From NCBI RefSeq assembly GCF_016026235.1, contig NZ_CP065613.1: a stretch of 64,000 nucleotides of DNA; one strand, 5' to 3'. A program made the position numbers and the translations under genes. Of the stretch, positions 5,989 through 42,206 are shown piece after piece. Every line of letters begins with the position of its first letter. Within the stretch, counting starts at the first letter, position 1. This DNA is from Escherichia coli (GTDB taxonomy: Bacteria; Pseudomonadota; Gammaproteobacteria; Enterobacterales; Enterobacteriaceae). A model generated the notes under the pieces. That model ran no database searches. It was given only the letters and a program-made list of their open reading frames with translations, and had not been told where the DNA came from.

Positions 5989-6407
5989 AAATCAGGCATG
6001 AGCACATCGAATCAGTGTTGTTAGCCCTGGCAGCCGAAAAAGGGCAGGCGTGGGTCGCTAACGCAATTACTGAAGAATATCTGCGCCAGGGGGGAGGTGA
6101 ATTGTCTCTGACACCAGGCAAGGACTGGAATAATCAGCAGAACATCTATCATCGTTGGTTAAAAGGTGAAACGAAAGCGCAAAGGGAAAAAATTCAGAAA
6201 CTGATCCCTGCGGTTCTGGCAATTCTTCCGCGCGAGCTGCGTCACCGACTCTGCATCTTCGATACCCTGGAACGCCGTGCATTACTGGCGGCGCAGGAAG
6301 CGTTGAGTACGGCAATTGATGCGCATGATGATGCAGTCCAGGCCGTTTACCGGAAAGCGCATTTCAGCGGCGGCGGGTCTTCCGACGATTCTGTCATTGT
6401 TCATTAA
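5985..6407 (+). CDS. YdaT-like prophage protein
   Basis: 140 aa, same length and position as Rac YdaT; start overlaps cro-like stop. Confidence 0.5.
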   Translation: MKIRHEHIESVLLALAAEKGQAWVANAITEEYLRQGGGELSLTPGKDWNNQQNIYHRWLKGETKAQREKIQKLIPAVLAILPRELRHRLCIFDTLERRALLAAQEALSTAIDAHDDAVQAVYRKAHFSGGGSSDDSVIVH

Positions 6408-6470
6408 GCAAAAGTTTCCATGCTGTTTGTGCTTATTCTAAGCAACCGGGCAGCATCATACGGGGCAATT

Positions 6471-7619
6471 ATGGCCGCATTACCATACATGCAACTGTAC
6501 ATAGCTGATTACCTGGCTGACACCATGCATTTGTCAGCAGAGGAGCACGGCGCGTATTTGTTGCTGATGTTCAATTACTGGCAAACAGGAAAGCCAATAC
6601 CCAAAAACAGGTTGGCAAAAATTGCCCGTCTGACTAACGAGCGATGGGTTGATGTTGAACCATCCTTGCGGGAGTTTTTTTGTGATAACGGCGACGAATG
6701 GATGCATCTTCGGATTGAGGAAGATCTGGCATCTGTCAGAGAAAAATTAACCAAAAAATCAGCCGCAGGAAAAGCATCTGTTCAGGCCAGAAGAAGCAGA
6801 AAGGAAGCAGATGTTCAAACAAAACAAGAGAGAAATTTAACAGGTGTTCAAACAGATGTTGGAGTGATGTTCGAACATGATGCCAACACAAAGGCAACTA
6901 ATAAAGATACAGATAAAGATCTAAAAACAGATCTAACCCATCCCAAACCCTTCCCTTCCGGAAGGGAGTTTCGGGATTTTGTGGCTGGAGTGCTTGAGGG
7001 GAGATTATCTGGCGGTACTGCAGCGGAATTTTGTAATTCTGCGGTGGTTGCGTTGCAGGCTGCTGGCCTGGATGTCTGTCGTGAGTATCCGGTGCCAGAG
7101 CGTGGTGACGGTTGCGGAGGGCGGATTGATATCGTCGTGACTGACAGGAACGGTGTCCGGTGTGGGATCGAGCTTGACCGAAATTCTCCGCGACAGAAAT
7201 CACTGCTCAAAATCGGTGCTGTTGAAACCGGGATATGTGTCTTGCGGCGCAGTGATATCGCAAGGCACACCGAGCAGGGAATTCTGGTTATCGGTGGGGC
7301 TGTTCGCCAGAAAAAATTTGACCCGTTGTCAGTTGATCTGCCCGACTGGTTGCCAGAAACACTCTGGCATGAGTGGGTCCAGTTCAGGCAGGCATTGCGA
7401 AAACCGATTCGAACGGAGCAGGGCGCTAACGGGGCGATACGGGAACTGGAAAAATTCCGTCAGCAGGGTTTTACACCTGAGCAGGTGATTCGACACAGCA
7501 TCGCCAATGAATACCAGGGTCTGTTCGCGCCGAAAGGTGTTCGGCCTGAGACGTTGCTCCGACAGGTTAACACCGTCTCGTTGCCGGACAGTGCGATCCC
7601 GCCAGGCTTCAGGGGGTAA
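6471..7619 (+). CDS. Replication initiation protein (DUF1376/YdaU-like) with extended central region
   Basis: N-terminal YMQLYIADYLADTMHLSAEEHGAYLLLMFNYW resembles DUF1376; ATG at 6471 chosen over track start 6420. Confidence 0.55.
   Translation: MAALPYMQLYIADYLADTMHLSAEEHGAYLLLMFNYWQTGKPIPKNRLAKIARLTNERWVDVEPSLREFFCDNGDEWMHLRIEEDLASVREKLTKKSAAGKASVQARRSRKEADVQTKQERNLTGVQTDVGVMFEHDANTKATNKDTDKDLKTDLTHPKPFPSGREFRDFVAGVLEGRLSGGTAAEFCNSAVVALQAAGLDVCREYPVPERGDGCGGRIDIVVTDRNGVRCGIELDRNSPRQKSLLKIGAVETGICVLRRSDIARHTEQGILVIGGAVRQKKFDPLSVDLPDWLPETLWHEWVQFRQALRKPIRTEQGANGAIRELEKFRQQGFTPEQVIRHSIANEYQGLFAPKGVRPETLLRQVNTVSLPDSAIPPGFRG
6811..6935. repeat. Iteron-like repeats plus AT-rich tract inside replication gene (putative ori)
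   Basis: ATGTTCAAAC (6811), GTGTTCAAAC (6845), ATGTTCGAAC (6867) followed by AT-rich AATAAAGATACAGATAAAGATCTAAAAACAGATC. Confidence 0.4.
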
Positions 7620-7625
7620 CAGACC

Positions 7626-8372
7626 ATGAAAAATATTGCGACAGGAGGCGTTCTGGAGCGTATCCGCAGACTGACCCCACCACATGTAACCGCCCCATTC
7701 AGAACGGTTGCGGAGTGGCGCGAGTGGCAACTTGCTGAAGGCCAGAAACGTTGCGAGGAGATCAACCGCCTGAATCGTCAGTTGCGGGTGGAAAAAATCC
7801 TGAACCGCTCCGGCATCCAGCCGTTGCACCGGAAGTGTTCGTTTGCGAATTACCGGGCGCAGAACGACGGTCAGCGACATGCACTGAGTCAGGCGAAATC
7901 CATAGCTGACGAACTGATGACAGGCTGTACGAATTTTGTGTTCAGCGGTAAGCCCGGCACCGGAAAAAATCATCTTGCAGCCGCGATTGGCAACCGGCTG
8001 ATGGCGAAGGGGCGTAGCGTGATTATCGTCACCGTGTCCGATGTCATGAGCGTGTTGCATGAGAGCTACGACAACGGCAAATCCGGTGAAAAATTTTTAC
8101 AGGAGCTTTGTGGTGTTGACCTGCTGGTCCTGGATGAAATTGGCATGCAGCGGGATACGAAAAACGAGCAGGTGGTACTGAACCAGATTGTTGATCGCCG
8201 GACGGCATCGTTACGCGGTGTGGGGATGCTGACAAATATTAACCATGCAGCGATGAATACACTTCTCGGCGAGCGGGTGATGGATCGCATGGTCATGAAC
8301 GGCGGGCGCTGGGTGAATTTTAACTGGGAGAGCTGGCGTCCGAATGTTAGCCATTCGAGGGTTGTTAAGTAG
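7626..8372 (+). CDS. DnaC-like helicase loader (IstB-like AAA+ ATPase)
   Basis: Walker A GKPGTGKNHLAAAIG, Walker B LLVLDEIG; follows initiator gene. Confidence 0.75.
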   Translation: MKNIATGGVLERIRRLTPPHVTAPFRTVAEWREWQLAEGQKRCEEINRLNRQLRVEKILNRSGIQPLHRKCSFANYRAQNDGQRHALSQAKSIADELMTGCTNFVFSGKPGTGKNHLAAAIGNRLMAKGRSVIIVTVSDVMSVLHESYDNGKSGEKFLQELCGVDLLVLDEIGMQRDTKNEQVVLNQIVDRRTASLRGVGMLTNINHAAMNTLLGERVMDRMVMNGGRWVNFNWESWRPNVSHSRVVK

Positions 8373-8809: not shown

Positions 8810-8852
8810 GTAAAATTAGCTATGAAGTGGTCAACAAAAACTGGCCACCGAG

Positions 8853-10000
<1,148 letters not shown>

Positions 10001-10119
10001 TATGGCACCTGTGTTGTTCTGAGGTGAGCATATCACCTCTGTTCAGGTGGCCAAATTCAGTAAACCACTTCACTATCAGGCTTCAATTACCGCTGGTATT
10101 CGCATCAAAGGAGAGGAGC

Positions 10120-15832: not shown

Positions 15833-15909
15833 GGCCCTTTAGCTCAGTTGGTCAGAGCGAGCGACTCATAATCGCCAGGTCGCTGGTTCAAGTCCAGCAA
15901 GGGCCACCA
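15833..15909 (+). tRNA. tRNA with CAU anticodon (Met or Ile2, ileZ-like)
   Basis: Manual cloverleaf: acceptor GGCCCTT/AAGGGCC, anticodon loop CTCATAA, 3' CCA. Confidence 0.8.
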
Positions 15910-15910
15910 A

Positions 15911-15987
15911 CCACCACTAGCTCATCCGGATAGAGCATCAACCTTCTAAGTTGACGGTGCGAGGTTCGAGTCCTCGGTGGTGGGCCA
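15911..15987 (+). tRNA. tRNA-Arg (UCU)
   Basis: Acceptor CCACCAC/GTGGTGG, anticodon loop CTTCTAA, T-loop TTCGAGT, 3' CCA. Confidence 0.75.
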
Positions 15988-15989
15988 GC

Positions 15990-16065
<76 letters not shown>

Positions 16066-16068
16066 TAT

Positions 16069-16143
<75 letters not shown>

Positions 16144-17883: not shown

Positions 17884-18347
17884 GCAGAGTCACCGCGATT
17901 ATCTCCGCTCTGGTTATCTGCATCATCGTCTGCCTGTCATGGGCTGTTAATCATTACCGTGATAACGCCATTACCTACAAAGAGCAGCGCGACAAAAACG
18001 CAAGAGAACTGAAGCTGGCGAACGCAACCATTACTGACATGCAGCAGCGCCAGCGTTCTGTTGATGCACTCGATGCTAAATACACGAAGGAGTTAGCTGA
18101 TGCGAAAGCTGAAAATGATGCTCTTCGGCGCAAGCTTGATAATGGTGGTCGGGTGCTCGTCAAAGGAAAATGCCCTGTGCCAGCCTCAGCCAAAACCTCC
18201 AGCGCCTCCGGCATGGGCAATGATGCCACCGTCGAACTCTCTTCAGTTGCTGGACGAAACGTTCTCGGTATCCGGGACGGAATTATCCGCGACCAAACAG
18301 CACTGAGAACGCTTCAGGAATACATCAATACGCAATGCCTGAATTAA
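17880..18347 (+). CDS. Rz i-spanin
   Basis: ATGA overlap with endolysin stop; N-terminal transmembrane segment then coiled-coil periplasmic domain. Confidence 0.7.
18100..18306 (+). CDS. Rz1 o-spanin lipoprotein embedded in Rz (+1 frame)
   Basis: Lipobox VVGCSS; Pro-rich mature region; entirely within Rz. Confidence 0.65.
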
Positions 18348-18388
18348 TCCCTCTGTATCAAAAACGAACTCAATTTGTTGGATAGTGA

Positions 18389-18700
18389 ATGAAAATTTAT
18401 ATTGCCGGGCCAATGACGGGATATGAGAACTTTAATCGTGACGCCTTTAATAAAGAGGCAGATCGTTTGTCACGACATGGTCACTCTGTCTTGAATCCAG
18501 CCACTTTGCCTAATGGTCTGACACAACGTGAATACATGGATATTTGCTTTGCAATGCTTCGTTGTGCGGATGCTATTTTGATGCTTCCTGGCTGGAAAGC
18601 GTCTGCTGGAGCAACTGCTGAGTATCATTACGCATACAAGATGGAGATGCCGGTATTCACTACGCTGAATTACCCGCCAGCTTGTTCCTCTGCAGTATAA
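18389..18700 (+). CDS. DUF4406 / nucleoside 2-deoxyribosyltransferase-like protein
   Basis: MKIYIAGPMTGYENFNRDAF N-terminus typical of the family. Confidence 0.5.
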   Translation: MKIYIAGPMTGYENFNRDAFNKEADRLSRHGHSVLNPATLPNGLTQREYMDICFAMLRCADAILMLPGWKASAGATAEYHYAYKMEMPVFTTLNYPPACSSAV

Positions 18701-19039
18701 AAATCTCTTTGTTTCTCGTGTGCGATCGTGGTCGCTCGCTAAATTCCGCGCTGCATCGTCGCCGTATTTCCGCATTAACTATGACCGTAGCCCGACGGGG
18801 AACTCCTTCTGCGCGAGTGTGCGGGAATAATCAAAAACGATGCACACCGGGTTTTTACCGCGTTTATGGTTCGCGGGTTTGTCCCTCATGCTCGCCAGTC
18901 CTGTGCGGGGGTGGAAGAAACAGGACACTTACACTGATTCTTGTGGGTACGATGCTATTCCTTTCTGGATTATCCCGATGTCATTCATGCAGGGCGCTGT
19001 ATCAGACGTTCGTCATGGCTGTCAGGCTGACGGGTCCTC

Positions 19040-19150
19040 CCGGTGGGGTGGCCTGCCACGGGGCGGGAGCGGCGCGGAAAAAGGCTAGTTTTTGAAATTT
19101 CATTCGTCATCACCACTACTGTAATGTATTGATATTACAGTGGTTTTATT
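19040..19150. other. Putative cos/packaging site region upstream of terminase
   Basis: GC-rich GGGGCGGGAGCGGCGCGG followed by AT-rich tract with palindrome CTGTAAT...ATTACAG; ORF-poor 550 bp. Confidence 0.25.
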
Positions 19151-19246
19151 TTTGTGCTGTCGGTTTTGATTGTTTTTTGTTCATCACTAACACCGTTTGC
19201 CTAAAGTTGTTCGCAAGATGCATGTTTAAAACATTCTGGAGCGGGT

Positions 19247-19740
19247 ATGGATCGAGAGTTAAAAAATCTGACGCTGAATATCAGTCAACTGGCGGCACTG
19301 TCAGGTGTACATCGCCAGACTGCTGCGGCAAGGCTGCAAAATCTACCCGTTGCAGGGGGCATGAAAGCAACCTCAAGCTTTATCGGGTGGTTGATATTGT
19401 GTCGGCATTTCTGGCATTACCACCGCCGGTTGCAGAAGGCGAAATGGACGCGCATGAGCGCAAAGCCTGGTATCAGTCTGAACGTGAGCGTCTTAAGTTC
19501 GAACAGGAAACGGCACAACTCATTCCGGCCAGTGATGTCAGACGGGAGTTTGCCATCTGGGCAAAAGCGGTCGTGCAGGTGCTGGAGACATTACCGGATA
19601 TTCTTGAACGTGACTGCGGTCTGCAGCCTGCCGCTGTGAGCCGTGTTCAGTCCATTATTGATGATCTGCGCGATCAGATAGCCCTGCGGGTGACTGAAGC
19701 AGGTGCGGATGATGAGGAGGAATTACAGCAGGAGGAGTAA
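19247..19740 (+). pseudogene. Terminase small subunit (Nu1-like), frameshifted at G-run 19355-19359
   Basis: N-terminal HTH MDRELKNLTLNISQLAALSGVHRQT in one frame; C-terminal part in the -1 frame; one extra G restores a Nu1-like protein. Confidence 0.6.
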
Positions 19741-21820
19741 TGCTGAATCAGGAAACCGCAAAGGCAGCACGAACCGATTCAGGTTATATCCTTCGCGCAC
19801 CAAGACGAATGCGGGTTGCTGATGCCGTTGCTCAGTATATGCGGGTGCCCATGGGGCAGGGAACTCAGTCCCGTGGGATCCGCTGGTGGCACCGTATGTT
19901 ATTGAGCCGATGAACTGCCTGGCCTCGCGTGAATACGACGCAGTGATATTTGTTGGCCCGGCACGAACCGGCAAGACTATCGGCCTGATTGACGGCTGGG
20001 TGATTTACAACGTGATTTGCGATCCTGCTGATATGCTGATCATTCAGATGACGGAGGAAAAAGCCCGCGAACACTCCAAAAAACGACTCGCCAGAACGTT
20101 TCGCGTCAGCCCGGAAGTGGTCAGTCGCCTGAGTCCGAACAAAAATGACAACAACGTTTATGACAGAACATTCCTTGCTGGCAACTACCTGAAAATCGGC
20201 TGGCCGTCAGTCAATATCATGTCCTCATCAGATTATAAATGCGTCGCGCTGACGGATTATGACCGTTTTCCGGAAGATATTGATGGTGAGGGGGATGCTT
20301 TCTCTCTTGCCTCAAAACGTACCACAACATTTATGTCCAGTGGTATGACGCTGGTGGAGAGTTCCCCCGGCAGGGATGTGAAGGATGTGAAATGGCGACG
20401 GACTTCACCGCATGAGGCTCCACCAACCACGGGGATACTGTCGCTCTATAACCGTGGCGATCGCCGTCGCTGGTACTGGCCCTGTCCACACTGTGGTGAG
20501 TATTTTCAGCCCTGCGGCGATGTGGTTGCTGGTTTCCGTGATATTGCCGATCCCGTGCTGGCAAGTGAGGCGGCTTATATTCAGTGTCCTTCCTGTTCAG
20601 GACGGATTATGCCTGAACAAAAACGTGAGCTGAACGGACGTGGGGTCTGGTTGCGGGATGGTGAATCCATCAATGCGGATGGCAGTCGTTATGGTGATCC
20701 CAGGCGTTCACGTATTGCGTCATTCTGGATGGAGGGTCCGGCAGCTGCTTACCAGACACTCTCGCAACTCGTTTACAAACTGCTTACTGCAGAACAGGAA
20801 TACGAGACAACCGGAAGTGAAGAAACACTCAGGGCGGTTATCAACACCGACTGGGGATTACCTTATCTTCCCCGCGCCAGCATGGAGCAACGAAAAAGTG
20901 AACTGCTTGAGCAGCGGGCAGAGCCTGTTCCTCCCCGCTGCGTGCCGGATGGTGTTAATTTCCTGGCGGCGACAGTGGATGTGCAGGCGGGACGTCATCG
21001 CCGTTTTGTGGTTCAGGTAACGGGTTATGGTTGCCGTGGCGAACGCTGGATTATTGATCGTTACAACATCACGCAGTCATTGCGTTGTGACAACAACGGA
21101 GAAAGCCTGCGAATTGATCCTGCTGGTTATCCTGAGGACTGGGATGTCCTGCTGACGGATGTTTTTCATAAAAGCTGGCCGTTGGCCTCCGATCCTTCTC
21201 AACAAATGCGACTGATGGCAATGGCGGTGGACTCCGGCGGTGAAGACGGGGTCACTGATAATGCCTATAAATTCTGGCGTCGTTGCCGTCGTGATGGCCT
21301 TGGTAAACGTATTTACCTGTTTAAGGGCGACAGCATCCGGCGCGCAAAACTGATCACCCGTACATTCCCTGATAACACCGGACGAACGGGCCGACGGGCG
21401 CAGGCCGCAGGTGATGTGCCGCTCTGGCTTCTTCAGACGGATGCCCTGAAAGACCGGGTGAATAACGCGTTATGGCGTGACTCGCCAGGTCCCGGCTATG
21501 TGCATTTCCCTGACTGGCTGGGGAGCTGGTTTTACGACGAACTGACGTATGAAGAGCGGAGCAGTGACGGGAAATGGAGTAAGCCGGGTCGAGGTGCCAA
21601 CGAAGCTTTTGACCTGATGGTGTATGCCGAGGCTCTGGTCATTCTGCATGGTTACGAGAAAATTCAGTGGCCGGATGCGCCGGAATGGGCATGCAGGGAA
21701 ACCTGGCTGGAGCGTGTCAGGGACGATGCCGGACTGTCAGCCTCGCCGGAGCCGGTATCCGTGTCCGTTAAAAAAAGAAACGAAAAAAAGTGGTGCCTGA
21801 TGAAGAAAACCCATGGGTGA
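19740..21820 (+). pseudogene. Terminase large subunit (gpA-like), frameshifted at G-run 19859-19861
   Basis: Conserved N-terminal segment (RAPRRMRVADAVAQYMRVP) starts at ATG 19740 in one frame; main body 19886..21820 (Walker A GPARTGKT) in another; one extra G joins them. Confidence 0.65.
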
Positions 21821-22049
21821 CTTCCGGAGGATGGTTGTGAACCAGAATGATATTGAAGCCATGATCCATCGTTATATCAATGCGGAAATGGCAGTGCTGG
21901 ACGGAAAGTCCATTACTTTTAATGGTCAGCAGATGACCATGGAAAACTTATCCGAGATCCGACAGGGGCGGCAGGAGTGGGAACGTCGCCTTGCGACTCT
22001 GGCTGCGCGGCGACGGGGGACGCCGGGCTATAAACTGGCGAGGTTCTGA
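21813..22049 (+). CDS. Head-tail joining protein W-like
   Basis: Size and C-terminus RRRGTPGYKLARF resemble lambda gpW; start uncertain. Confidence 0.5.
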   Translation: MGDFRRMVVNQNDIEAMIHRYINAEMAVLDGKSITFNGQQMTMENLSEIRQGRQEWERRLATLAARRRGTPGYKLARF

Positions 22050-23553
22050 TGGCAATTCTTGATGATGTGATTGGTGTTTTTTCACCTGGCTGGAAAGCTG
22101 CGAGATTGCGCTCAAGGGCATTAATTCGTGCCTATGAGGCAGTGAAGCCTACTCGTACACATAAAGCCCGGCGGGAAAATCGTTCTGCCGACCAGCTCAG
22201 TAAGTACGGTGCAGTTTCCCTGCGGGAGCAGGCTCGTTTTCTGGACATCAATCATGATCTGGTAATCGGTGTTTTCGACAAACTTGAGGAACGGGTGATT
22301 GGTGCAAAAGGGATCGTTGTCGAACCCCAGCCATTACTGAAGAACGGTGATATAGCCACAGAGCTGGCAATGATTATCCGTCGCTTGTGGGTGGAATGGT
22401 CTGTCAGTCCGGATGTGACCGGGCAGTATACGCGCCCCATGCTCGAGCGTCTGCTGCTGCGTACCTGGTTACGTGATGGTGAAGTGTTTGCCCAGCTGGT
22501 TCGTGGTGCCGGCGGCGGGCTGGTGCGGACTGCTGGCGTGCCTTTCTGGATCGAGGCAATGGAGCCGGATTTTGTGCCCATGCTCAGTGATGAATCTGTG
22601 GGGTTGAATCAGGGTGTTTTTCTGGATGACTGGGGCAGACCGAAAAAATACCTGGTTTATAAAAATCATCCGACTACCGGGCGGCTGAGTGATACCAAAG
22701 AGATCGTTGCCGAAAATATGGTGCATCTGAAATTTACCCGTCGTCTGCATCAGACGCGTGGTACATCCATGTTGTCAGGTGTGCTGATGCGGATCAGTGC
22801 GCTTAAGGAATATGAAGATGCTGAGCTGACAGCGGCGCGTGTTGCTGCGGCTCTGGGGCTGTATATCCGTAAAGGAGATGGGCAGGATTATGAAGACGCC
22901 ACGATAAATAAAGATAATGACCGGGAACTGCATATCACCCCTGGCATTATTTATGACGATTTGCGCAAGGGGAAGATATTGGCATGGTCAAATCTGATCG
23001 GCCCAATCCTAACCTTGAAACTTTTCGTAACGGGCAGCTGCGTGCGGTGGCCGCAGGCAGTCGTATGAGTTTTTCCAGTGCGGCGCGCAATTACAACGGT
23101 ACCTACAGCGCTCAGCGACAGGAGCTGGTCGAGTCCACTGACGGGTATCTGATCCTGCAGGACTGCTTTATTGGTGCTGTAACCCGTCCCGTGTACCGGA
23201 CGTGGCTGAACATGGTGGTAGCAGCAGGTCTGCTGAAAATCCCGTCGGATGTGGATATGAAAACGTTGTGTAACGCAACATATTCCGGTCCGGTCATGCC
23301 GTGGATTGATCCGGTTAAGGAGGCTGAGGCCTGGAAAATCCAGATTCGCGGTGGAGCGGCGACAGAATCAGACTGGGTGCGAGCAGGTGGGCGTAATCCG
23401 GATGATGTCAAACGTCGGCGCAAGGCTGAAATTGATGAAAACCGCAAGCTGGGTCTGATATTTGATACCGATCCGGCCAGTGATAAAGGAGGCAGCAGTG
23501 TCGCAACGAAACGACAGGAGCCGCAGCACACCGACGGCCAGTCCGAAGAATAA
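22049..23553 (+). pseudogene. Portal protein, frameshifted at G-run 22969-22972
   Basis: Two overlapping ORFs (22049..23068, 22984..23553); one extra G makes a single reading frame of about 500 aa; position between W and protease. Confidence 0.6.
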
Positions 23554-23566
23554 TTCCTGGTTCAGG

Positions 23567-25557
23567 ATGCAGGCAGGTCACCAGAGTGACGCGGATATTT
23601 ATATTTATGACGAGATTGGTTTCTGGGGTGTTACGGCGAAGCAGTTTATCAGCGATCTGAATGCACTGGGCGATATCACCCACATTAATCTCCATATCAA
23701 TTCACCGGGTGGCGATGTCTTTGAAGGCATCGCCATTTTTAATGCACTGAAAACACATGGTGCGTCCATTACCGTTTATGTCGACGGTGTGGCGGCATCA
23801 ATGGCGTCGGTCATTGCGATGGTGGGAAACCCGGTCATTATGCCGGAAAACACCTTCATGATGATTCATAAACCATTTGGCTTTACGGGCGGTGATGCGG
23901 AGGACATGCGCACCTATGCCGACCTGCTCGATAAAGTTGAGGCGGTTCTGTTACCCGCTTATGCACAGAAAACCGGGAAAACCACCGATGAAGTTGCTGC
24001 CATGCTGGCGGATGAGACCTGGATGTCCGGTGCCGAATGTCTGGCACATGGATTTGCTGATCAGGTGACGCCAGCCGTTAAGGCAATGGCATGTATTCAG
24101 TCAAAACGTACAGAGGAATTTAAAAAGATGCCGGAATCCATTCGAAACATGATTACTCCGCCACGCAACAGTGCAACGCGTGAACCTGAAAACAAAAATA
24201 CTGCATCTCAGACACAGGAGCAGACTACGGCTCAGGTTGCCACAACCGCGACCACCACAAATGCACCTTCCGCAGATGAAAGCAGTATCCGTGCGCAGGT
24301 ACTGGCAGAGCAAAAAGCACGTGTGAGTGGTATTAATGAACTGTTTGGTATGTTTGGCGGGCGTTATCAGACATTGCAGGCCAGTTGTCTTTCCGATCCG
24401 GAGTGCTCGCTTGAGCAGGCCCGTGAGAAATTACTTAACGAAATGGGTAAGGAATTTTCACCATCAAATAAAAATACCCCGGCCCATATTTATGCCGGAA
24501 ACGGTAATTTTGTGGGGGACGGGATCCGCCAGGCGCTGATGGCGCGTGCCGGGTTTGAAAAAACTGAACGTGATAATGTCTACAACGGGATGACCCTGCG
24601 TGAATATGCCCGTATGTCACTGACTGAACGGGGTATTGGGGTTTCCGGTTATAACCCGATGCAGATGGTCGGGGCAGCGTTCACACACAGTACGTCTGAC
24701 TTCGGTAATATTCTGCTGGATGTTGCGAACAAAGCCATTCTGCAGGGCTGGGAAGATGCCCCTGAAACCTATGAACAGTGGACGCGGAAAGGTCAGCTGT
24801 CTGATTTTAAAATTGCCCATCGTGTGGGTATGGGGGCTTCAGTGCTCTGCGTCAGGTGCGTGAAGGAGCGGAATATAAATACGTTACTACCGGAGATAAA
24901 CAGGCCACGATTGCACTGGCGACCTATGGTGAACTGTTCAGTATCACCCGTCAGGCCATTATCAACGATGATCTGAATATGCTGACCGATGTCCCGATGA
25001 AACTGGGCCGTGCGGCAAAATCCACTATTGCCGATCTGGTTTATGCCATTCTGACGTCTAACCCGAAAATCTCCACAGATAATGTAAGTCTGTTCGATAA
25101 AGCGAAACATGCAAACGTACTGGAGAGCGCTGCAATGGACGTGGCATCGCTGGATAAAGCCCGCCAGTTGATGCGTGTTCAGAAAGAGGGTGAGCGTCAT
25201 CTGAATATTCGTCCTGCGTTCGTACTGGTACCGACGGCGATGGAGTCTGTTGCTAACCAGGTCATTCGCTCCTCAAGTGTCAAGGGGGCTGACATTAACG
25301 CCGGTATTATTAACCCGGTGAAAGATTTTGCGACCGTTATTGCAGAGCCTCGTCTTGATGATAACAGCCAGACCACCTTCTACCTGGCTGCGTCCAAAGG
25401 CTCCGATACGATTGAAGTGGCTTATCTCAACGGTGTGGATACGCCATATATTGATCAGATGGAGGGCTTCAGTGTGGATGGCGTGACAACGAAAGTGCGT
25501 ATTGACGCTGGTGTCGCGCCAGTTGATCACCGCGGTCTGGTGAAATGTACGGCGTAA
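23567..25557 (+). pseudogene. Prohead protease (ClpP/S49-like) - scaffold - major capsid fusion, frameshifted at G-run 24832-24836
   Basis: N-terminal ClpP-like GDVFEGIAIFNALKTHGASITVYVDGVAASMASVIA; capsid-like C-terminal part continues in ORF 24856..25557; one extra G restores continuity. Confidence 0.6.
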
Positions 25558-25643
25558 ACGTCGCAGATAACAACTCTGATGGCCCGTAAGGGCTTTTTTT
25601 GTACCTGAAATCAGCCCCTGAACGGGGCTGTGCGGAGACAGTT

Positions 25644-25967
25644 ATGGCAAAGAATTTTGTAGAAGAAGGGAAAACGGTGGCGATTGTTGCCAGTGCAGCC
25701 ATCAGCAGCGGAGATCTGGTGCAGGTGGGTGATGTTTTTGCGGTGGCGCTGACCGATATTCCACAGGGTGAAACAGGCGACGGCCTGACCGAAGGTGTGT
25801 TTATGCTGCCTAAGCTGAAAACGGATGACATGAAAACGGGTAAGAAGGTTTTTCTGAAGTCCGGAAAAGTTCAGCTGACTAACAGCGGCTCTGATCCGCT
25901 GGTCGGGGTTGTCTGGGCAGATGCCGGAGCTGGTGCAGAAGAAGTGCCGGTAAAACTCAATGTCTGA
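25644..25967 (+). CDS. DUF2190-like head protein
   Basis: ATG at 25644 after GGAG; 107 aa immediately after capsid gene. Confidence 0.45.
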   Translation: MAKNFVEEGKTVAIVASAAISSGDLVQVGDVFAVALTDIPQGETGDGLTEGVFMLPKLKTDDMKTGKKVFLKSGKVQLTNSGSDPLVGVVWADAGAGAEEVPVKLNV

Positions 25968-26235
25968 TCCCTTTTCCCGGCTGGCAGCGCGTATGGATGC
26001 GATCACGGTCAGAAAGATGGGAAAGATGGCCTCGATTAATGATGTTTATATGCCTGTGCTCCCGGGAGAAACTCTGGCAGAGCTGAACGCTCTGTCCGGA
26101 CCGGCGGTCTCTCTGGTGGTGTTTTCTTCGGGATACCGCCCACGGCGCGGGGACCGCGTTGTTTATGACGGACAACAATGGACGGTCACACGGCATGAAC
26201 GCTTTAACGGTAAACCAATGATCTTTATTGAGTAA
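25960..26235 (+). CDS. Head-tail connector protein (gpFII-like)
   Basis: RRGDRVVYDGQQW motif resembles lambda FII RRGDTLTIGEENFW; gene order. Confidence 0.5.
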   Translation: MSDPFSRLAARMDAITVRKMGKMASINDVYMPVLPGETLAELNALSGPAVSLVVFSSGYRPRRGDRVVYDGQQWTVTRHERFNGKPMIFIE

Positions 26236-26246
26236 AGAGGTGTGGG

Positions 26247-26831
26247 ATGAAGGGGCTTGAGAATGCCATCCGTAATCTGAACAGCCTCGATACCCGCATG
26301 GTGCCACAGGCCAGCGCATGGGCGGTAAACCGTGTGGCGGCAAAGATTATTTCTGTCGCCACACGGCAGGTTGCGCAGAATACCGTTGCCGGGGATAACC
26401 AGGTGAAAGGTATTCCCCTGAAAACGGTCAGGGAGCGTGTCAGGCTGCTTAAAGCCAGCCCCTCAGGAAAAATGTATGCCCGCATGCGTGTTAACCGGGG
26501 TAACCTGCCCGCCATTAAGCTGGGTACCGCACAGGTCAGACTGGCCCGCTCCCGGCATGGCAGCAACTCACGTCATCGTGGCAGCGTACTGAAAGTGGGG
26601 AAATACCTTTTCCGGGATGCGTTTATTCAGCAACTGGCGAATGGTCGCTGGCATGTGATGCGGCGTATTGACGGCAAAAATCGTTACCCCATTGATGTGG
26701 TGAAAATCCCGCTGTCCGGACCGCTGACACAGGCATTTGAAGATGCCCGCGACCGCATCATTGCTGCGGAAATGCCGAAACAGCTGGGGTATGCACTGAA
26801 ACAACAACTGAGGTTATGGCTGACCCGATGA
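26247..26831 (+). CDS. Tail completion protein Z-like
   Basis: 194 aa, position before U; AGAGG Shine-Dalgarno. Confidence 0.55.
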   Translation: MKGLENAIRNLNSLDTRMVPQASAWAVNRVAAKIISVATRQVAQNTVAGDNQVKGIPLKTVRERVRLLKASPSGKMYARMRVNRGNLPAIKLGTAQVRLARSRHGSNSRHRGSVLKVGKYLFRDAFIQQLANGRWHVMRRIDGKNRYPIDVVKIPLSGPLTQAFEDARDRIIAAEMPKQLGYALKQQLRLWLTR

Positions 26832-27229
26832 ACCGACATACACAGATCCGCCAGGTCGTACTGGCACGCCTTCGGGAACAGTGTGGAGACAGCGCCACGT
26901 TTTTTGACGGGCTTCCGGCATTTGTTGATGCGCAGGAACTGCCTGCCGTGGCGGTGTGGCTGAGTGATGCTCAGTACACCGGAAAAATGACGGATGAAGA
27001 TGACTGGCAGGCTGTTCTGCATATTGCTGTCTTCATCCGGGCACAGGCACCGGATTCAGAGCTGGATATGTGGATGGAGAGCACCATTTTCCCGGCCCTG
27101 AATGATGTACCGGCACTTTCCGGACTCATCGACACCATGAACCCACTCGGTTTTAACTATCAACGTGATAATGAGATGGCCACCTGGGCGATGGCGGAAA
27201 TCACGTACCAGATCACGTACACGAATTAA
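26816..27229 (+). CDS. Tail terminator protein U
   Basis: ATFFDG...AVAVWL...PDSELDMWMES...ITYQITY closely resembles recalled lambda gpU. Confidence 0.7.
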   Translation: MADPMNRHTQIRQVVLARLREQCGDSATFFDGLPAFVDAQELPAVAVWLSDAQYTGKMTDEDDWQAVLHIAVFIRAQAPDSELDMWMESTIFPALNDVPALSGLIDTMNPLGFNYQRDNEMATWAMAEITYQITYTN

Positions 27230-27239
27230 GGAGGTGGCA

Positions 27240-27980
27240 ATGACCACACCAAATCCACTGGCAAAAACGAAAGGTGCGGGAACGACGTTCTGGATGTACA
27301 CCGGCAAGGGCGATGCGTTTGCGAACCCTTTGTCGGACACTGACTGGCTGCGTCTTGCGATGGTGAAGGATCTGCAACCTGGCGAAATGACCGCTGATGC
27401 AGAAGATGACACTTATCTCGATGATGAAGATGCAGACTGGAAAACGACAACCCAGGGGCAGAAATCCGTCGGTGATACTTTGGCGACGCTGGCCTGGCGT
27501 CCGGGTGACAGCGGGCAGAAAAAACTGGTTCAGTTGTTCGATTCCGGTGAAGTCTGCGCGTTTCGTATCAAATACCCCAACGGTACGGTTGATGTTTTCC
27601 GTGGCTGGCTGAGTTCACTGGGTAAAACCATTACCTCAAAAGAGGTGATGACCCGTACTGTAAAAATCAGCGGTGTGGGGCGTCCGTATCTGGCAGAGGA
27701 GGGCGCTGAAACCGTGGGTGTTACCGGACTGACGGTGGCACCGGCATCTGTCAGTGTCAAAGCGGGAGCAACCACCACACTGACCTTTACAGTAAAACCT
27801 GACGGGGCCAGTGACAAAGCGATCAGTGTGCATTCGTCAGATCCTCAGACTGCTTCGGTGACCCTGAGCGGGCTTGTGGCCACGGTGAAAGGCGTGAAGC
27901 AGGGCAGTGTCAGCATCGTGGGCATGACCTCTGACGGAGAGTTTGTGGCAGTGGCTGCGGTGACCGTCAGCGCACCATAA
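27240..27980 (+). CDS. Major tail protein V with C-terminal Ig-like domain
   Basis: 246 aa as lambda gpV; AAGGAGGTG Shine-Dalgarno; C-terminal Big_2-like repeat. Confidence 0.8.
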   Translation: MTTPNPLAKTKGAGTTFWMYTGKGDAFANPLSDTDWLRLAMVKDLQPGEMTADAEDDTYLDDEDADWKTTTQGQKSVGDTLATLAWRPGDSGQKKLVQLFDSGEVCAFRIKYPNGTVDVFRGWLSSLGKTITSKEVMTRTVKISGVGRPYLAEEGAETVGVTGLTVAPASVSVKAGATTTLTFTVKPDGASDKAISVHSSDPQTASVTLSGLVATVKGVKQGSVSIVGMTSDGEFVAVAAVTVSAP

Positions 27981-28035
27981 CAGGACGATACTCATCATTG
28001 CCCCGGTTATCCGGGGCTTTTTGCATCCGGAGAAC

Positions 28036-28425
28036 ATGATGTTTCTGAAACAGGATACGTTTAATTATGAAAAACAGTCCGTGGTGCTCAGTGAGCTGTC
28101 CGGGCTGCAGAGAATTGAATATCTGACGTTTGTTCAGCAGCGAACGGCAAAGTTTGATGCACAGGAGGGAGAACTGCCGGAGGCTGAACGACAGATTGCT
28201 TTTCTGCGTATGGGAATGGATATCAATGCCTGGCTGGTTTCCCGCTCACTGTGGAATGCTGAGCAGTCTCAGGATGTTGAGACGCTTTGCGCATCCATTA
28301 TGACAACATGGTCGTATGATGCGCTGGGCGCGGGGGCGGAGAGGGTTCTGTCGCTGAGCGGTATGGGGACCATTGAGAATGCCGGGGATGATGATCATGA
28401 GGCGCTGACGCCGGAAAAGTCCTGA
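28036..28425 (+). CDS. Tail assembly chaperone G
   Basis: MFLKQ...LSELSGLQRIEYL resembles lambda gpG. Confidence 0.7.
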   Translation: MMFLKQDTFNYEKQSVVLSELSGLQRIEYLTFVQQRTAKFDAQEGELPEAERQIAFLRMGMDINAWLVSRSLWNAEQSQDVETLCASIMTTWSYDALGAGAERVLSLSGMGTIENAGDDDHEALTPEKS

Positions 28426-28763
28426 CGCGGGAAATGCAGTTTGTCATGCGGCTTGCCCGGGAGTTCCGGCGGGCAGACTGGCGGCGGATGCTGTCGGAAA
28501 TGTCGGCCACTGAGCTTGGTGAGTGGGGCGATTATTTCCGGATGCAGAGCTTCAGTGATGTGTGGATGGATGCGCAGTTTGCCTCGCTGAAGGCATTGAT
28601 CGTGAGAATGGTGTCCGGCAGCAGCGATGCTGCGGTGGCTGATTTCAGCCTTTTACCGGAAGAGAACGGGATACCGGAGCGAACGGACGAAGAACTGATG
28701 CATCTTGGGGAAGGTATTTCCGGAGGTGTGCGTTATGGACCAGATAGCCAACCTGGTCATTGA
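28410..28763 (+). CDS. T-frame of tail assembly chaperone GT (expressed as G-T fusion by -1 programmed frameshift)
   Basis: -1 frame opens at 28410 and overlaps the end of G; heptamer GGAAAAG at 28413-28419 sits where lambda has GGGAAAG. Confidence 0.55.
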   Translation, partial: AGKVLTREMQFVMRLAREFRRADWRRMLSEMSATELGEWGDYFRMQSFSDVWMDAQFASLKALIVRMVSGSSDAAVADFSLLPEENGIPERTDEELMHLGEGISGGVRYGPDSQPGH

Positions 28764-31700
28764 TTTGGGGATTGATGCGGCAGAGTTTAAAAATGAAATT
28801 CCCCGTATCAAAAACCTTCTGAATGGTGCAGCCAGCGATGCAGAACGGTCTTCTGCCCGTATGCAGCGTTTTATGGAGCGTCAGACTCAGGCCGCCCGGC
28901 AGACAACGCAGGCGGCTTCTTCGGCTGCAACAGCCGCATCCGTCCATGCGCAGACGGTGGAGAAGAACGCACAGGCTCATGAACGCATGGCCCGCGAGGT
29001 GGAGAAAACCCGCCAGCGCATGGAGGCGCTGAGCCAGAAAATGCGCGAGGAACAGGCGCAGGCCAGGGCACTGGCGGAGGCGCAGGATAAAGCGGCTGCC
29101 GCCTTTTATCGCCAGATTGACAGTGTGAAACAGGCCGGTGCGGGGCTTCAGGAATTACAGCGTATTCAGCAGCAGATCCGACAGGCCAGAAACAGTGGCG
29201 GGGTTGGTCAGCAGGATTATCTGGCGCTGATTTCGGAGATCACGGCGAAAACCCGTGCCCTGACGCAGGCAGAGGAACAGGCCACCCGGCAGAAAGCGGC
29301 GTTTATCCGCCAGCTTAAAGAGCAGGCAACCCGCCAGAATCTGTCGTCTTCTGAGTTGCTTCGCGCCAGGGCGGCTCAGCTGGGGGTAAGCAGTGCTGCA
29401 GAAGTGTATATCCGCAAAATGGAGCGGGCAGGAAAAGCCACACATTCGCTGGGGCTGAAAAGTGCGGCAGCCCGGCGGGAGCTGGGGGTGTTAATCAGTC
29501 AGATGGCGCGCGGCAATTTTGGTGCGCTGAGGGGATCCGGGATAACGCTGGCTAACCGTGCCGGATGGACAGGCGCACTGATGTCGCCGAAAGGCATGAT
29601 GACTGGCGGCGTTATTGGCGGACTTGTCGCGGCGGTCCTGGGTCTGGGTAAAGCCTGGCATGACGGCCGGAAGGAGGGCGAGGAATTTAACCGTCAGCTG
29701 GCGCTGACGGGACATTATGCCGGTGTCACTGTCGGGCAGTTGTGGAAACTCAGCCGGGCCATATCCGGGAATGGTATCACGCAACATGCGGCAGCCGGTG
29801 CGCTGGCACAGGTGGTGGGCAGTGGGGCATTTCATGGAAACGATATTGGTATGGTGGCGAAAGCTGCCGCACAGATGGAGCGATCGGTTGGCCAGTCGGT
29901 CAGCGATACCATAAATCAGTTTAAGCGGCTGAAGGATGATCCTGTAAATGCCGCGAAGGCGCTGGACAATGCGCTGCATTTTTTGACTGCCACTCAGCTT
30001 GAGCAGATACGCGTCCTTGGGGAGCAGGGGCGGTCCAGTGATGCGGCCCGGATCGCCATGTCTGCGCTGGCAGAGGAAACCGGTAAACGCACATCTGATA
30101 TTGATAATAATCTCAATGCGCTGGGTAGTACGCTGCAAACCTTGTCTGACTGGTGGAAGCAGTTCTGGGATGCGGCCATGAATATTGGTCGTGAAGACTC
30201 GCTGGATGCGCAGATTGATGCGTTACAGGAAAAAATTCAGCGCGCGAAAAAATATCCGTGGACAAACGCCTCCACACAGGTGGAGTACGATCAGCAGCGT
30301 CTTAACGATCTTCAGGAGAAAAAACGCCGGAAGGATTTGCAGGATGCAAAAGCGCAGGCAGAACGGAATTACCAGGAGCAACAGAAACGCCGGAATGCTG
30401 AAAATGCCGCGCTGAACCGGATGAATGAAACGGAAGCTGCACGACATCAGCGGGAAATTGCGCGTATTAATGCCATGCAGTACGCCGACCAGGCTGTCAG
30501 GGATGCGGCGATACAGCGTGAAAATGAACGTTACGAAAAAGCCATTAAGAAAAATACACGGGCAACCCGTAATGATGAGGCCACCCGGTTATTGCTGCAG
30601 TACAGTCAGCAGCAGGCACAGGTGGAAGGGCAGATTGCTGCTGCCAGACAGTCAGCAGGCATTGCCACTGAAAGGATGACTGAAGCGCATAAACAGCTTC
30701 TGGCCCTGCAGCAGCGCATCAGCGACCTGGGCGGGAAAAAGCTGACGGCAGATGAAAAGAGTGTGCTGGCCCGTAAGAATGAGCTGATTCAGGCGCTGAC
30801 GCTGCTGGATGTGAAACAGCAGGAGCTGCAGAAACAGACAGCGCTTAACGACCTGAGAAAAAAAACGGTTCAGCTGACCAGCCAGCTGGCAGACAAAGAA
30901 CGTGCACTGCGTGAGCAGCACAATCTGGATATTGCCACTGCAGGTATGGGGATAAGCAGCGGCAGCGCTACCAGGCACAGTTGCGCATCCGGCAGGAATA
31001 CCGGCAACAGTTGCAACAGCTTGAGAATGACAGTCGCCAGAAAGGCACTTACGGGACGGAGGACTACCGGAGGGCTGAGGAGGTGCTGAAGGGGAGCCTG
31101 AAGCGACAACTGAATGAAAACAAACGCTACTGGCAGGAACTGGAAGTGGCGCAGGGCGACTGGAAAAACGGTGCCATGCGGGCGTTTCAGAATTTTACGG
31201 CGGATGCGGATAATGCGGCGGGAACGGCAGAACAGATGTTTACAGTGGCATTCAGCAGTGCCGGTAATGCACTGGCGACATTCTGTACCACCGGTAAGCT
31301 GAATTTTAAATCCTTTACCTCTTCCCTGTTGTCAGATATGGCCAGAATTATGGCACAGATGGCCATGATGCAGGCGGTAAAGGGCGTCGGTTCTTTATTC
31401 GGCTTCACGACTAATGCTGATGGCGGTGTTTACCAGTCTGCTGATTTGAGTCGCTACAGTGGCACGGTGGTTAACCGTCCGACGTTTTTTGCTTTTGCAA
31501 AAGGCGCGGGTGTGATGGGGGAAGCGGGACCTGAAGCCATTCTGCCACTGCGTCGCGGTGCTGATGGTAAGCTGGGGGTTGTGGCGGATACTGGTGGTTC
31601 AGGCATGGTGATGTTTGCCCCGCAGTACAACATTGAGATCAATAACGATGGCACGAACGGGCAGATAGGTCCGGCTGCCCTGAAGGTGGTTTATGACCTC

Positions 31701-31775
31701 GGGAAAAAAGCGGCCGCGGACTTTATGCAACAGCAGGCCCGTGATGGTGGCCGGTTAAGTGGAGCATACCGGTAA
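28735..31775 (+). pseudogene. Tail tape measure protein H, frameshifted at G-run 30948-30951
   Basis: Long Ala/Gln-rich coiled-coil ORF 28705..31089 continues in ORF 30981..31775; one extra G gives a continuous protein of about 1010 aa. Confidence 0.7.
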
Positions 31776-32104
31776 TGGAGACGTTTCACTGGAAAGTGCG
31801 CCCGGATATGAATGTGGTATCAGAGCCGAAAGTGGTGACAGTGAAGCTGGGCGATGGTTATGAACAGCGTCGTGCGGCGGGACTGAATAACCAGTTGTCG
31901 ACTTACAGCGTGACGATACGTGTTCGTAAAGGTGAACACCCATCTTTAAAAGCCTTTCTGGAACGGCACGGTGGCGTCCGCGCATTTCAGTGGACGCCAC
32001 CTTATGACTGGAAGCCGATCAGGGTGGTTTGTCGTAAATGGTCGGCAAGCGTGGGGGCGTTGTGGGTAACCATAACGGCAGATTTTGAACAGGTCGTGGC
32101 ATAG
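31775..32104 (+). CDS. Minor tail protein M
   Basis: 109 aa, same length and gene order as lambda gpM. Confidence 0.8.
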   Translation: METFHWKVRPDMNVVSEPKVVTVKLGDGYEQRRAAGLNNQLSTYSVTIRVRKGEHPSLKAFLERHGGVRAFQWTPPYDWKPIRVVCRKWSASVGALWVTITADFEQVVA

Positions 32105-32113
32105 GAGTCTCTG

Positions 32114-32812
32114 ATGCAGGATATTCCACAGGAAACACATCATGAGACGACACGCCTCACTCAGTCAGCCCAGGTGGTGCTCTGGGAAATCGATCTGACA
32201 GTGGTCGGTGGAGAACGTTATTTTTTCTGTAATGAGCAGAACGATAAAGGTGAGCCGGTCACCTGGCAGAGGCGACAGTATCAGGCGTATCCCATTCAGG
32301 GGACGGGATTTGAACTGAACGGCAAAGGCAGTGCTGCCCGTCCGACACTGACGGTTTCTAACCTGCACGGCATGGTCACCGGGATGGCGGAAGACCTGCA
32401 GAGTCTGGTCGGAGGAACGGTGGTCCGGCGTAAGGTTTACGCCCGTTTTCTGGATGCGGTGAACTTCGTCAACGGAAACAGTGACGCCGATCCGGAGCAG
32501 GAGGTGATCAGCCGCTGGCGCATCGAGCAGTGCAGCGAACTGAGCGCGGTGAGTGCCTCTTTTGTACTGTCCACGCCGACGGAAACGGACGGCGCTGTTT
32601 TTCCGGGGCGCATCATGCTGGCTAATACCTGCACCTGGACCTATCGCGGTGATGAGTGCGGTTATCACGGTCCGGCGGTCGCGGATGAATATGACCAGCC
32701 GACCTCCGATATCACGAAGGATAAATGCAGCAAATGCCTGAGCGGCTGTAAGTTTCGCAATAACGTCGGCAACTTTGGCGGCTTCCTTTCCATTAACAAA
32801 CTTTCGCAGTGA
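32114..32812 (+). CDS. Minor tail protein L
   Basis: 232 aa as lambda gpL; Cys cluster near C-terminus. Confidence 0.8.
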   Translation: MQDIPQETHHETTRLTQSAQVVLWEIDLTVVGGERYFFCNEQNDKGEPVTWQRRQYQAYPIQGTGFELNGKGSAARPTLTVSNLHGMVTGMAEDLQSLVGGTVVRRKVYARFLDAVNFVNGNSDADPEQEVISRWRIEQCSELSAVSASFVLSTPTETDGAVFPGRIMLANTCTWTYRGDECGYHGPAVADEYDQPTSDITKDKCSKCLSGCKFRNNVGNFGGFLSINKLSQ

Positions 32813-33561
32813 ATCCCATGACAGAGACAGAATCAGCGATTCTGGCGCACGCCCGGCGATGTGCGCCAGCGGAGTCGTGCGGCTTCGTGGTGAGAACACC
32901 GGAGGGGGAAAGATATTTTCCCTGCGTGAATATCTCCGGTGAGCCGGAGGAGTATTTCCGGATGTCGCCGGAGGACTGGCTGCGGGCAGAGATGCAGGGT
33001 GAGATTGTGGCGCTGGTCCACAGCCACCCCGGTGGTCTGCCCTGGCTGAGTGAGACCGACCGGCGGCTGCAGGTGCAGAGTGATTTGCCGTGGTGGCTGG
33101 TTTGCCGGGGGGCGATTCACAAGTTCCGCTGTGTGCCACATCTTTCCGGGCGGCGCTTTGAGCACGGGGTGACGGACTGTTACACGCTGTTCCGGGATGC
33201 TTACCATCTGGCGGGGATTGAGATGCCGGATTTTCATCGCGAGGATGACTGGTGGCGTAACGGTCAGAATCTCTATCTGGATAATCTGGAGGCCACAGGG
33301 CTGTATCAGGTGCCGTTGTCAGCGGCGCAGCCGGGCGATGTGCTGCTGTGCTGTTTTGGTTCATCGGTGCCGAATCATGCCGCCATTTACTGTGGTGACG
33401 GCGAGCTGCTGCACCATATTCCTGAACAACTGAGCAAACGAGAGAGGTACACCGACAAATGGCAGCGACGCACACACTCCCTCTGGCGTCACCGGGCATG
33501 GCACGCATCTGCCTTTACGGGGATTTACAACGATTTGGCCGCCGCATCGACCTTCGAGTGA
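32809..33561 (+). CDS. Tail assembly protein K (MPN/JAB + NlpC/P60)
   Basis: HSHPGG JAB motif and Cys/His peptidase motifs. Confidence 0.75.
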   Translation: MNPMTETESAILAHARRCAPAESCGFVVRTPEGERYFPCVNISGEPEEYFRMSPEDWLRAEMQGEIVALVHSHPGGLPWLSETDRRLQVQSDLPWWLVCRGAIHKFRCVPHLSGRRFEHGVTDCYTLFRDAYHLAGIEMPDFHREDDWWRNGQNLYLDNLEATGLYQVPLSAAQPGDVLLCCFGSSVPNHAAIYCGDGELLHHIPEQLSKRERYTDKWQRRTHSLWRHRAWHASAFTGIYNDLAAASTFE

Positions 33562-34106
33562 AAACGGGGTCCGAAGCCATCCGGGCGCTGGCCATGCAGA
33601 TCCCGGCGTTTCGTCAGAAACTGAGCGACGGCTGGTACCAGGTACGCATTGCCGGGCGTGATGCAGGTGAAACCGAATTGTCTGCCCGTCTTAATGAGCC
33701 GCTGGCAAATGGTGCCGTGATCCACATCGTGCCGCGTCTGGCGGGAGCTAAAAGTGGCAGTGTGTTTCAGGTGGTGCTGGGGGTGGCGCTGATTGCGGTG
33801 GCATGGTGGAACCCTGTGGGCTGGCTGGGTGCCGCGGCTGTATCGGGCATGTATGCGGCAGGGGCCAGTATGATCCTGGGCGGAGTGGCGCAGATGCTGG
33901 CACCGAAAGCCAGGACGCCCACGGCAGCAAGTACAGATAACGGCAAACAGAACACCTATTTCTCCTCACTGGATAACATGGTTGCCCAGGGCAATGTTCT
34001 GCCCGTTCTGTACGGTGAAATGCGCGTGGGGTCGCGGGTGGTCTCTCAGGAGATCCGCACGGCAGACGAAGGGGATGGTGGTCAGGTTGTGGTGATTGGT
34101 CGCTGA
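33459..34106 (+). CDS. Tail assembly protein I
   Basis: MAATHTLPLASPGMARICLYGDLQRFGRRIDLRVKTG matches recalled lambda gpI; overlaps 3' end of K. Confidence 0.7.
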   Translation: MAATHTLPLASPGMARICLYGDLQRFGRRIDLRVKTGSEAIRALAMQIPAFRQKLSDGWYQVRIAGRDAGETELSARLNEPLANGAVIHIVPRLAGAKSGSVFQVVLGVALIAVAWWNPVGWLGAAAVSGMYAAGASMILGGVAQMLAPKARTPTAASTDNGKQNTYFSSLDNMVAQGNVLPVLYGEMRVGSRVVSQEIRTADEGDGGQVVVIGR

Positions 34107-34163
34107 TGAAAAACGTTTTATGTGAAACCGCCTCCGGGCGGTTTTGTCGTTTATGGAGCGTGA

Positions 34164-37575
<3,412 letters not shown>

Positions 37576-37644
37576 AATTGTTATAACCCATATAAGGGCA
37601 CCAGAAATGGTGCCTTTTTTATTGCAGAAAAGCGAGAGGTAATT

Positions 37645-41352: not shown

Positions 41353-42206
41353 GAGCGATCCTCCAGCGCTTTATGCGCACGCCGACGATTTGCCAAAAGT
41401 CCATGGGTGGGCGCAAATACAAATGCTAAAAGAAACAGCAGTGTCTGCGCCACCACGATGATTCCACCTGTCGCGCCGTCCAGAAAGTAACTGACCCACG
41501 CGCCGAGGAAACTGGTTACACTGCCAATAGTTACAGCAATTATGAGCAGGCGGGGAAAACGATCGGTTAACAACCATGCTGTTGCACCGGGAGTCACCAC
41601 CAGACAGATCACCAGAAAGGCACCAACCGTTTGCAGCGCCGCAACGGTCGAAACCGACAGCAGGGTGAAGAAGAGGATTTTTAATCTGCCCGGATGTAAT
41701 CCAATAGCACGGGCGTGATTCTCGTCGAAAAAGGTCACCATAAGATCTTTCCATTTGAAAAAAAGCACGATGATCGAGAGAATGCCAATGATAGTGAGTT
41801 GCAGGATATCCGCCGGATCGATTGCCAGAATATTGCCCAGGACGATGGTCTGAATGTTCACGGATGTCGGGTTCAATGACACCATAAACAGCCCCAGGCC
41901 AAAAAAGGACGAGAAGATCAGGCCGATGATGGCATCTTCTTTTAAGCGGGTGCGTTGGTTAAGAAACAGCATGCTGCCCGCTGCCAGTCCGCCGGAAAAG
42001 AAGGCTCCCAGAGAAAACGGAAGCCCCAGCATATATGCCCCCGCAACACCCGGGACAATAGAGTGCGACAGCGCATCGCCAATCAGCGACCAGCCTTTTA
42101 GCATCAGATAGCATGACAGGAAAGCGCAGAGACCGCCGACCATTGCCGAGACCCACATCGCATTGAGCATATATTCATAGCTGAAGGGTTCCAGTAGCAC
42201 GTTCAT
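41349..42206 (-). CDS. sitC: Mn/Fe ABC transporter permease SitC
   Basis: 285-aa ABC-3 family permease. Confidence 0.85.

Follow-up and report, generated by a model that had tools for sequence, protein, structure and literature searches.

A Gifsy-2-type protease-scaffold-capsid fusion gene in a lambdoid Escherichia coli prophage, interrupted by a frameshift that is most likely a homopolymer under-call

The protease-capsid reading frame in the window (the whole 64,000-nucleotide stretch of E. coli DNA analyzed here) is, we conclude with high confidence, a tripartite capsid gene of the Gifsy-2 type, carried by a lambdoid prophage, and the single-base frameshift that interrupts it is not programmed, being most likely a homopolymer under-call. 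The gene is a typical representative of a large curated family whose arrangement is already known and very common. With a structural precedent in Gifsy-2 from 2010, an NCBI family model of its own, and related DNA in more than a third of complete E. coli genomes, it is of little novelty. Going by its sequence, the copy in the window is a disrupted member of that family (NF045540), not another kind of gene. Its value to annotators is as a quality flag: the eight contractions found in the late genes of this prophage, including the one in the capsid gene, should be treated as probable sequence errors rather than as biology.

Two plus-strand ORFs were listed at this locus: 23462..24976 and, shifted into its -1 frame, 24856..25557. 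The overlap of these two ORFs lies around a GGGGG run at exactly 24832-24836, and it is this G5 in place of G6 that splits the ORF and leaves the window copy without an uninterrupted frame. Adding one G after 24836 produced a single ORF with its stop ending at 25557; translation from ATG 23567 gives 663 aa, and from GTG 23498 it gives 686 aa. The earlier note had described one ORF of about 663 codons at 23567-25557, broken by a single-base frameshift at 24832-24836; its coordinates, its codon count (once the G is restored), and its placing of the lesion are all correct. At this run, where the window shows G5, the closest E. coli record (99.8% identical) carries G6. The GTG is the start usually annotated in relatives and is the PGAP start in intact ones (e.g., CDS 6099..8159 of record L001), and we graded the Shine-Dalgarno sequence upstream of it as strong. 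Read from this GTG, the fusion gene shares 23498-23553 with the last 56 nt of the portal gene, in another frame. In the closest E. coli record, PGAP annotates an intact protein, from which the repaired 686-aa product departs at a single residue. The frameshift follows codon 423, within what is predicted to be the E-loop of the capsid domain, so that most of the capsid fold is missing from the first ORF. As written, the interrupted gene would not be expected to yield a capsid protein; it would do so only if the frameshift proved to be a sequence error. The features of the locus and the other late-gene contractions are collected in Table 1.

Table 1. Features of the fusion gene and its surroundings, and homopolymer contractions in other late genes (window coordinates)
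Feature	Position	Strand	Basis
Portal gene, immediately upstream, split by G5>G4 at 22969	22049..23553	+	ORFs, relatives
Shine-Dalgarno AAGGAGG, 5 nt upstream of GTG 23498	23486..23492	+	sequence
Fused protease-scaffold-capsid gene, complete but with -1 frameshift	23498..25557	+	NF045540, PHROG 133
ClpP-like (S14) serine protease domain, aa 23-168	23633..24070	+	Pfam CLP_protease 7e-36
Predicted catalytic Ser78 codon	23798-23800	+	conservation in homologues
Predicted catalytic His101 codon	23867-23869	+	conservation in homologues
Thr/Ala/Gln-rich linker, predicted disordered, aa 201-233	24167..24265	+	AF2 pLDDT <50
Helical region, presumed scaffold/delta-like, aa 238-327	24278..24547	+	AF2 secondary structure
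HK97-fold major capsid domain, Pfam aa 365-660	24659..25545	+	Phage_capsid_4 3e-54
G5 run, G6 in every intact relative read; -1 frameshift site after codon 423	24832..24836	+	sequence, relatives
Terminator-like hairpin and T-run just after capsid gene	25581..25600	+	sequence; mEp460 annotation
DUF2190 / Phage_cement_2 decoration (cement) protein gene	25644..25967	+	61% identical to Gifsy-2 homologue
Contraction G6>G5	19355		
Contraction G5>G4	19853		
Contraction A8>A7	21770		
Contraction G5>G4	22969		
Contraction G5>G4	30948		
Contraction T6>T5, in J	36614-36618		
Contraction A5>A4, in J	36664-36667		

The repaired protein matched the NCBIfam model NF045540 at 983.9 bits (cutoff 475), with aa 9-662 aligned to profile positions 2-651 of 652, and PHROG 133 matched it end to end. 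PGAP names the gene in E. coli genomes as a ClpP-like prohead protease/major capsid protein fusion protein. By megablast, related DNA was present in 2077 of 5426 complete E. coli genomes (about 38%); it was also found in 29 phage records, including mEp460, cdtI, Ayreon, and Tritos, at about 96.5% identity. A tblastn search showed the full-length architecture to be encoded in 80 phage records, among them Pseudomonas phage MD8 and a Paracoccus phage, with about 1570 further records having a stand-alone ClpP-like protease only. Fusion lengths of 630-735 aa were found by HMMER in about 120 of the best 150 cluster representatives (clustered at 50% identity), mostly collinear with the query, and the collinear full-length architecture held in most of these ~120 down to 34% identity. 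Public protein sets also contain ORFs of 1135-1159 aa that join portal, protease, and capsid; because the junction varies between cases, we take them to be sporadic frameshift artefacts rather than a conserved form.

Within this family, the characterized prototype is Salmonella phage Gifsy-2, whose capsid gene product (STM1034.3n) is 69% identical to the repaired protein over 676 aligned residues, that is, over its full length. The gene order is the same. The earlier note set the fused frame apart from the separate C, Nu3, and E genes of lambda, and fusion is indeed the defining feature of the curated NF045540 family. The Gifsy-2 capsid gene is called 'tripartite' by Effantin et al. (2010, Virology 402:355), as cited in PMC12315714, and PMC8538268 names Gifsy-2 as one of the phages whose trimeric decoration protein sits at the three-fold axes.

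The N-terminal domain is a ClpP-like protease. Besides the Pfam assignment, it matched the NCBIfam model NF045542, 'head maturation protease, ClpP-related', at 215 bits, and Foldseek aligned it with ClpP chains at TM 0.75-0.83. A sequence search of the PDB returned ClpP as the only match, for the N-terminus, and no capsid relative for the C-terminal part. The predicted catalytic residues Ser78 and His101, the ClpP catalytic pair, were kept in 122 of 123 diverse fusion homologues in our alignment; Asp165 is present and is conserved less (88 of 123). The protease had initially been described as ClpP/S49-like, and only the first half of that description stands: Pfam and Foldseek both support a ClpP-like (S14) protease, whereas the NCBIfam SppA_dom model scored 22 bits against a cutoff of 155, with the ClpP models far stronger, placing the domain outside S49/SppA.

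We modeled the whole protein with AlphaFold2, using an alignment of 100 diverse full-length homologues (33-59% identity). The full-length model (mean pLDDT 89.3) contains a compact domain from aa 1 to about 170 and a large alpha/beta domain at about 340-663 with a long helix at 471-498, so that the folded capsid domain begins near aa 340, at about nt 24584. Between the domains lies the Thr/Ala-rich linker that had been noted from the sequence, a low-complexity Thr/Ala/Gln stretch that is disordered in the model. It is followed by helices at 238-261, 268-276, 282-295, and 315-327, a region that we presume to be a scaffold or delta-like segment by analogy with Gifsy-2, the HK97 delta domain, and lambda Nu3. 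In the homologue alignment this linker/scaffold-like segment is gap-rich and poorly conserved. The capsid fold was assigned by structure prediction and Foldseek, with a separate model of aa 301-663 (pLDDT 92.7), the search with the full-length model having been swamped by ClpP chains. The aa 301-663 model matched HK97-fold shells at probability 1.00, including encapsulins, the capsids of phages FCWL1, D3, SaPI1, and phiCD508, and HK97 Head II (2ft1); Pfam gave an additional, weaker match to Mu-like_gpT in the capsid domain. The suggestion of a capsid-like C-terminus, which a fold other than HK97 would have contradicted, is thus borne out by both Pfam (3e-54) and Foldseek, and the domain mapping proposed at the outset yielded a ClpP-like protease, a disordered stretch with helices, and an HK97-fold capsid domain in succession.

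The fusion gene sits between the portal and decoration genes in the head module. In mEp460, a rho-independent terminator is annotated at the place equivalent to the hairpin at 25581..25600. The prophage is lambdoid and occupies the Rac site, where recE and ydaU/ydaV-like genes at its left and sitABCD and chromosomal genes at its right place it. The sitABCD iron/manganese transporter operon (40495-43944, minus strand) lies at its right end, and beyond it are the chromosomal genes uspF, ompN, nifJ, ldhA, ydbH, feaRB, tynA, and paaZ. In the early/replication region, an ISEc52-like element of the IS3 family (8822-10072, with an rve-domain transposase on the minus strand) adjoins a ydaV-like ATPase gene and differs from a reference copy by one substitution and no indel. 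A cluster of four tRNAs at 15833-16143, between the early region and the lysis genes, comprises a CAT-anticodon tRNA (called Met here, Ile in relatives), Arg-TCT, Thr-TGT, and Gly-TCC. The prophage has mosaic boundaries at 18347-18748 and 31700-37600. Left of 18748, similarity is lost in all close relatives of the late region; most of these also diverge from about 31.7 kb, with the closest (L027) identical to about 34 kb, and J takes on a lambda-like allele in its C-terminal part.

The G run at 24832-24836 is a recurrent weak point, whatever the cause. A megablast search with the 53-bp stretch around it found an exact G5 match in 6 of 1785 E. coli records, with 1778 of the 1785 at 95-99% identity; among the 95-99% matches listed, the alignment spanned one extra base. 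In NCTC9699, the annotation marks the G5 copy as 'frameshifted'; the infectious phage mEp460 has an in-frame G6, and so does Gifsy-2. Several independent SRA assemblies made up of short contigs also have G5, there on a different allele, with a nonsense allele nearby in one of them; this recurrence on another allele indicates that real slippage at the run occurs. Two public assemblies with megabase contigs (GCA_026134585.1 and GCA_052662605.1) have G8 or G5 at the run and many fragmented phage genes nearby, the pattern that homopolymer sequencing errors would produce in the same module in other genomes.

The capsid gene is not the only late gene affected. We found eight -1 homopolymer contractions in the late genes, including that at 24832, and the seven others are private to the window among the relatives examined. 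The eight break DUF1441 (small-terminase-like), the large terminase (twice), the portal, the capsid fusion, the tape measure, and J (twice), and are confined to about 19.2-36.7 kb; the late genes contain no nonsense mutations and no +1 changes. Every indel between 18748 and 31699 relative to the closest relative is a one-base homopolymer contraction in the window, and comparison of positions 19000-34000 with L027 (GCA_900449985.1) revealed zero substitutions and six -1 homopolymer contractions. At the six sites 19355, 19853, 21770, 22969, 24832, and 30948, the run is longer in each of the ten loci that encode the identical intact protein. A protein catalogue with 15 billion entries lacks the truncated products peculiar to the window allele, and it lists the intact protein of identical sequence on 172 contigs; a 233-aa C-terminal fragment is catalogued and is common to other alleles. 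Elsewhere in the window, the flanking chromosome at 41000-64000 has only two indels relative to a 98.8% relative, both intergenic, and the early prophage region, about 14 kb, has no coding indels relative to its relatives. Comparison with the nearest relatives showed three more contractions, each of a single T, at 46569 (T9>T8), 4530 (T5>T4), and 3919 (TT>T); all are intergenic.

We consider it most likely that the frameshift reflects under-calling of a homopolymer, limited to the late region of the prophage in the source assembly, because six contractions stand against zero substitutions over 15 kb, the runs are longer in the loci encoding the intact protein, and the truncated products are absent from the catalogue. 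To our knowledge, no natural mutation spectrum gives six slippage deletions and zero substitutions in 15 kb. A simple genome-wide homopolymer error was rejected on the strength of the 23 kb flank, the early region, and the ISEc52-like element, none of which has coding indels; with the flank, early region, and multi-copy IS all spared, any error process must have been confined to the late region, and a long intragenomic repeat that escaped polishing would confine errors in just this way. The same clean flank and early region are, however, what purifying selection predicts if this is a defective prophage and the gene a genuine pseudogene, with the late genes inactivated by real, very recent, private slippage in homopolymers. 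The IS3-family insertion in the early region, the heavy degradation of relatives in Shigella-like genomes, the status of G:C runs as natural slippage hotspots, and the recurrence of G5 in other assemblies (one with a nonsense allele nearby) would all fit such decay. We nevertheless regard it as unlikely: the six indels and zero substitutions over 15 kb relative to the nearest relative lie well outside any natural ratio of indels to substitutions that is known and disfavor natural decay, each of the eight lesions is a -1 contraction, with +1 changes, nonsense mutations, and larger events all absent, and the truncated products are missing from 15 billion proteins that include the identical intact protein on 172 contigs.

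A functional role for the frameshift seems highly improbable. The break could be a programmed -1 ribosomal or transcriptional slip setting how much protease-scaffold is made per full-length capsid precursor, or a phase-variable G-tract switch; it does lie in a homopolymer, G5 variants occur in several genomes on two allele backgrounds, and programmed frameshifts operate elsewhere in phage late operons, as in the G-T of tail assembly (annotated in Gifsy-2). But every intact copy read, including those of mEp460 and Gifsy-2, has an in-frame G6, and 1778 of 1785 records match at 95-99% rather than exactly. Moreover, the site, AUG GGG GCU, does not fit the X XXY YYZ pattern of a slippery heptamer, and no regulatory model explains seven other late-gene lesions of the same kind. 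The in-frame G6 of the relatives and the missing heptamer led us to reject a programmed frameshift. Similarly, we give very little credence to the idea that the G6 tract in the capsid E-loop codons is a recurrent slippage switch that turns the capsid off, a contingency locus for prophage domestication; were it true, the truncated product of 469-492 aa would keep the ClpP-like protease intact along with the scaffold segment and might retain some activity. Finally, there is almost no chance that the fusion ORF is fortuitous or was mis-assembled from separate protease and capsid genes. Databases do hold sporadic artefacts of this sort, such as the 1159-aa portal-protease-capsid ORFs with differing junctions, but the architecture is collinear in most of the ~120 representatives and in isolated phages, a curated full-length HMM (NF045540) exists, and comparison of the window ORFs with annotated L001, mEp460, and Gifsy-2 revealed no separate capsid gene elsewhere in the head module.

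The intact gene suggests a route of head assembly, which we draw from homology and from what is established for HK97 and lambda heads. The precursor would co-assemble on the portal into a procapsid, with its protease and helical/scaffold parts facing inward. The Ser-His protease would then cut off the N-terminal roughly 330-340 residues of the precursor; we infer this self-processing from homology and the Gifsy-2 literature. The shell would expand upon DNA packaging and then be cemented by the adjacent DUF2190 decoration protein (25644-25967). A fused protease-scaffold-capsid layout fixes the stoichiometry of the parts and ensures that the protease is packaged.

Among known systems, Gifsy-2 shares the order ClpP-like protease, linker/scaffold, capsid, with a start that overlaps the end of the portal gene, a capsid domain visibly more conserved than the rest of the protein, and the gene order terS-terL-small ORF-portal-fusion-decoration-tail. 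It differs in the sequence and length of the linker, and its gene is intact, whereas the window copy has the -1 frameshift in the capsid domain. The coliphages mEp460, cdtI, Ayreon, and Tritos, which carry NF045540 (scaf_prot_MCP1), share the terminator and neighboring genes; the window has a slightly different linker allele and encodes 686 aa rather than 675 aa, counted from the upstream start, and its copy is interrupted. In lambda, protease and scaffold are already in one reading frame (C/Nu3) and likewise work inside a T=7 HK97-fold shell stabilized by a trimeric decoration protein. However, lambda gpC is S49/SppA-like, in contrast to the S14/ClpP-like protease of the window, and its capsid protein E is encoded by a separate gene, whereas the capsid in the window is fused. 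The capsid domain has the HK97 fold (Foldseek 2ft1), and in HK97, too, a scaffold function is joined to the N-terminus of the capsid protein and cut off by a phage protease. The HK97 gp4 protease belongs to the herpesvirus-like prohead protease family, and the delta domain of gp5 is only about 100 residues long. HK97 encodes its protease in a separate gene, whereas in the window the protease is on the same chain as the capsid.
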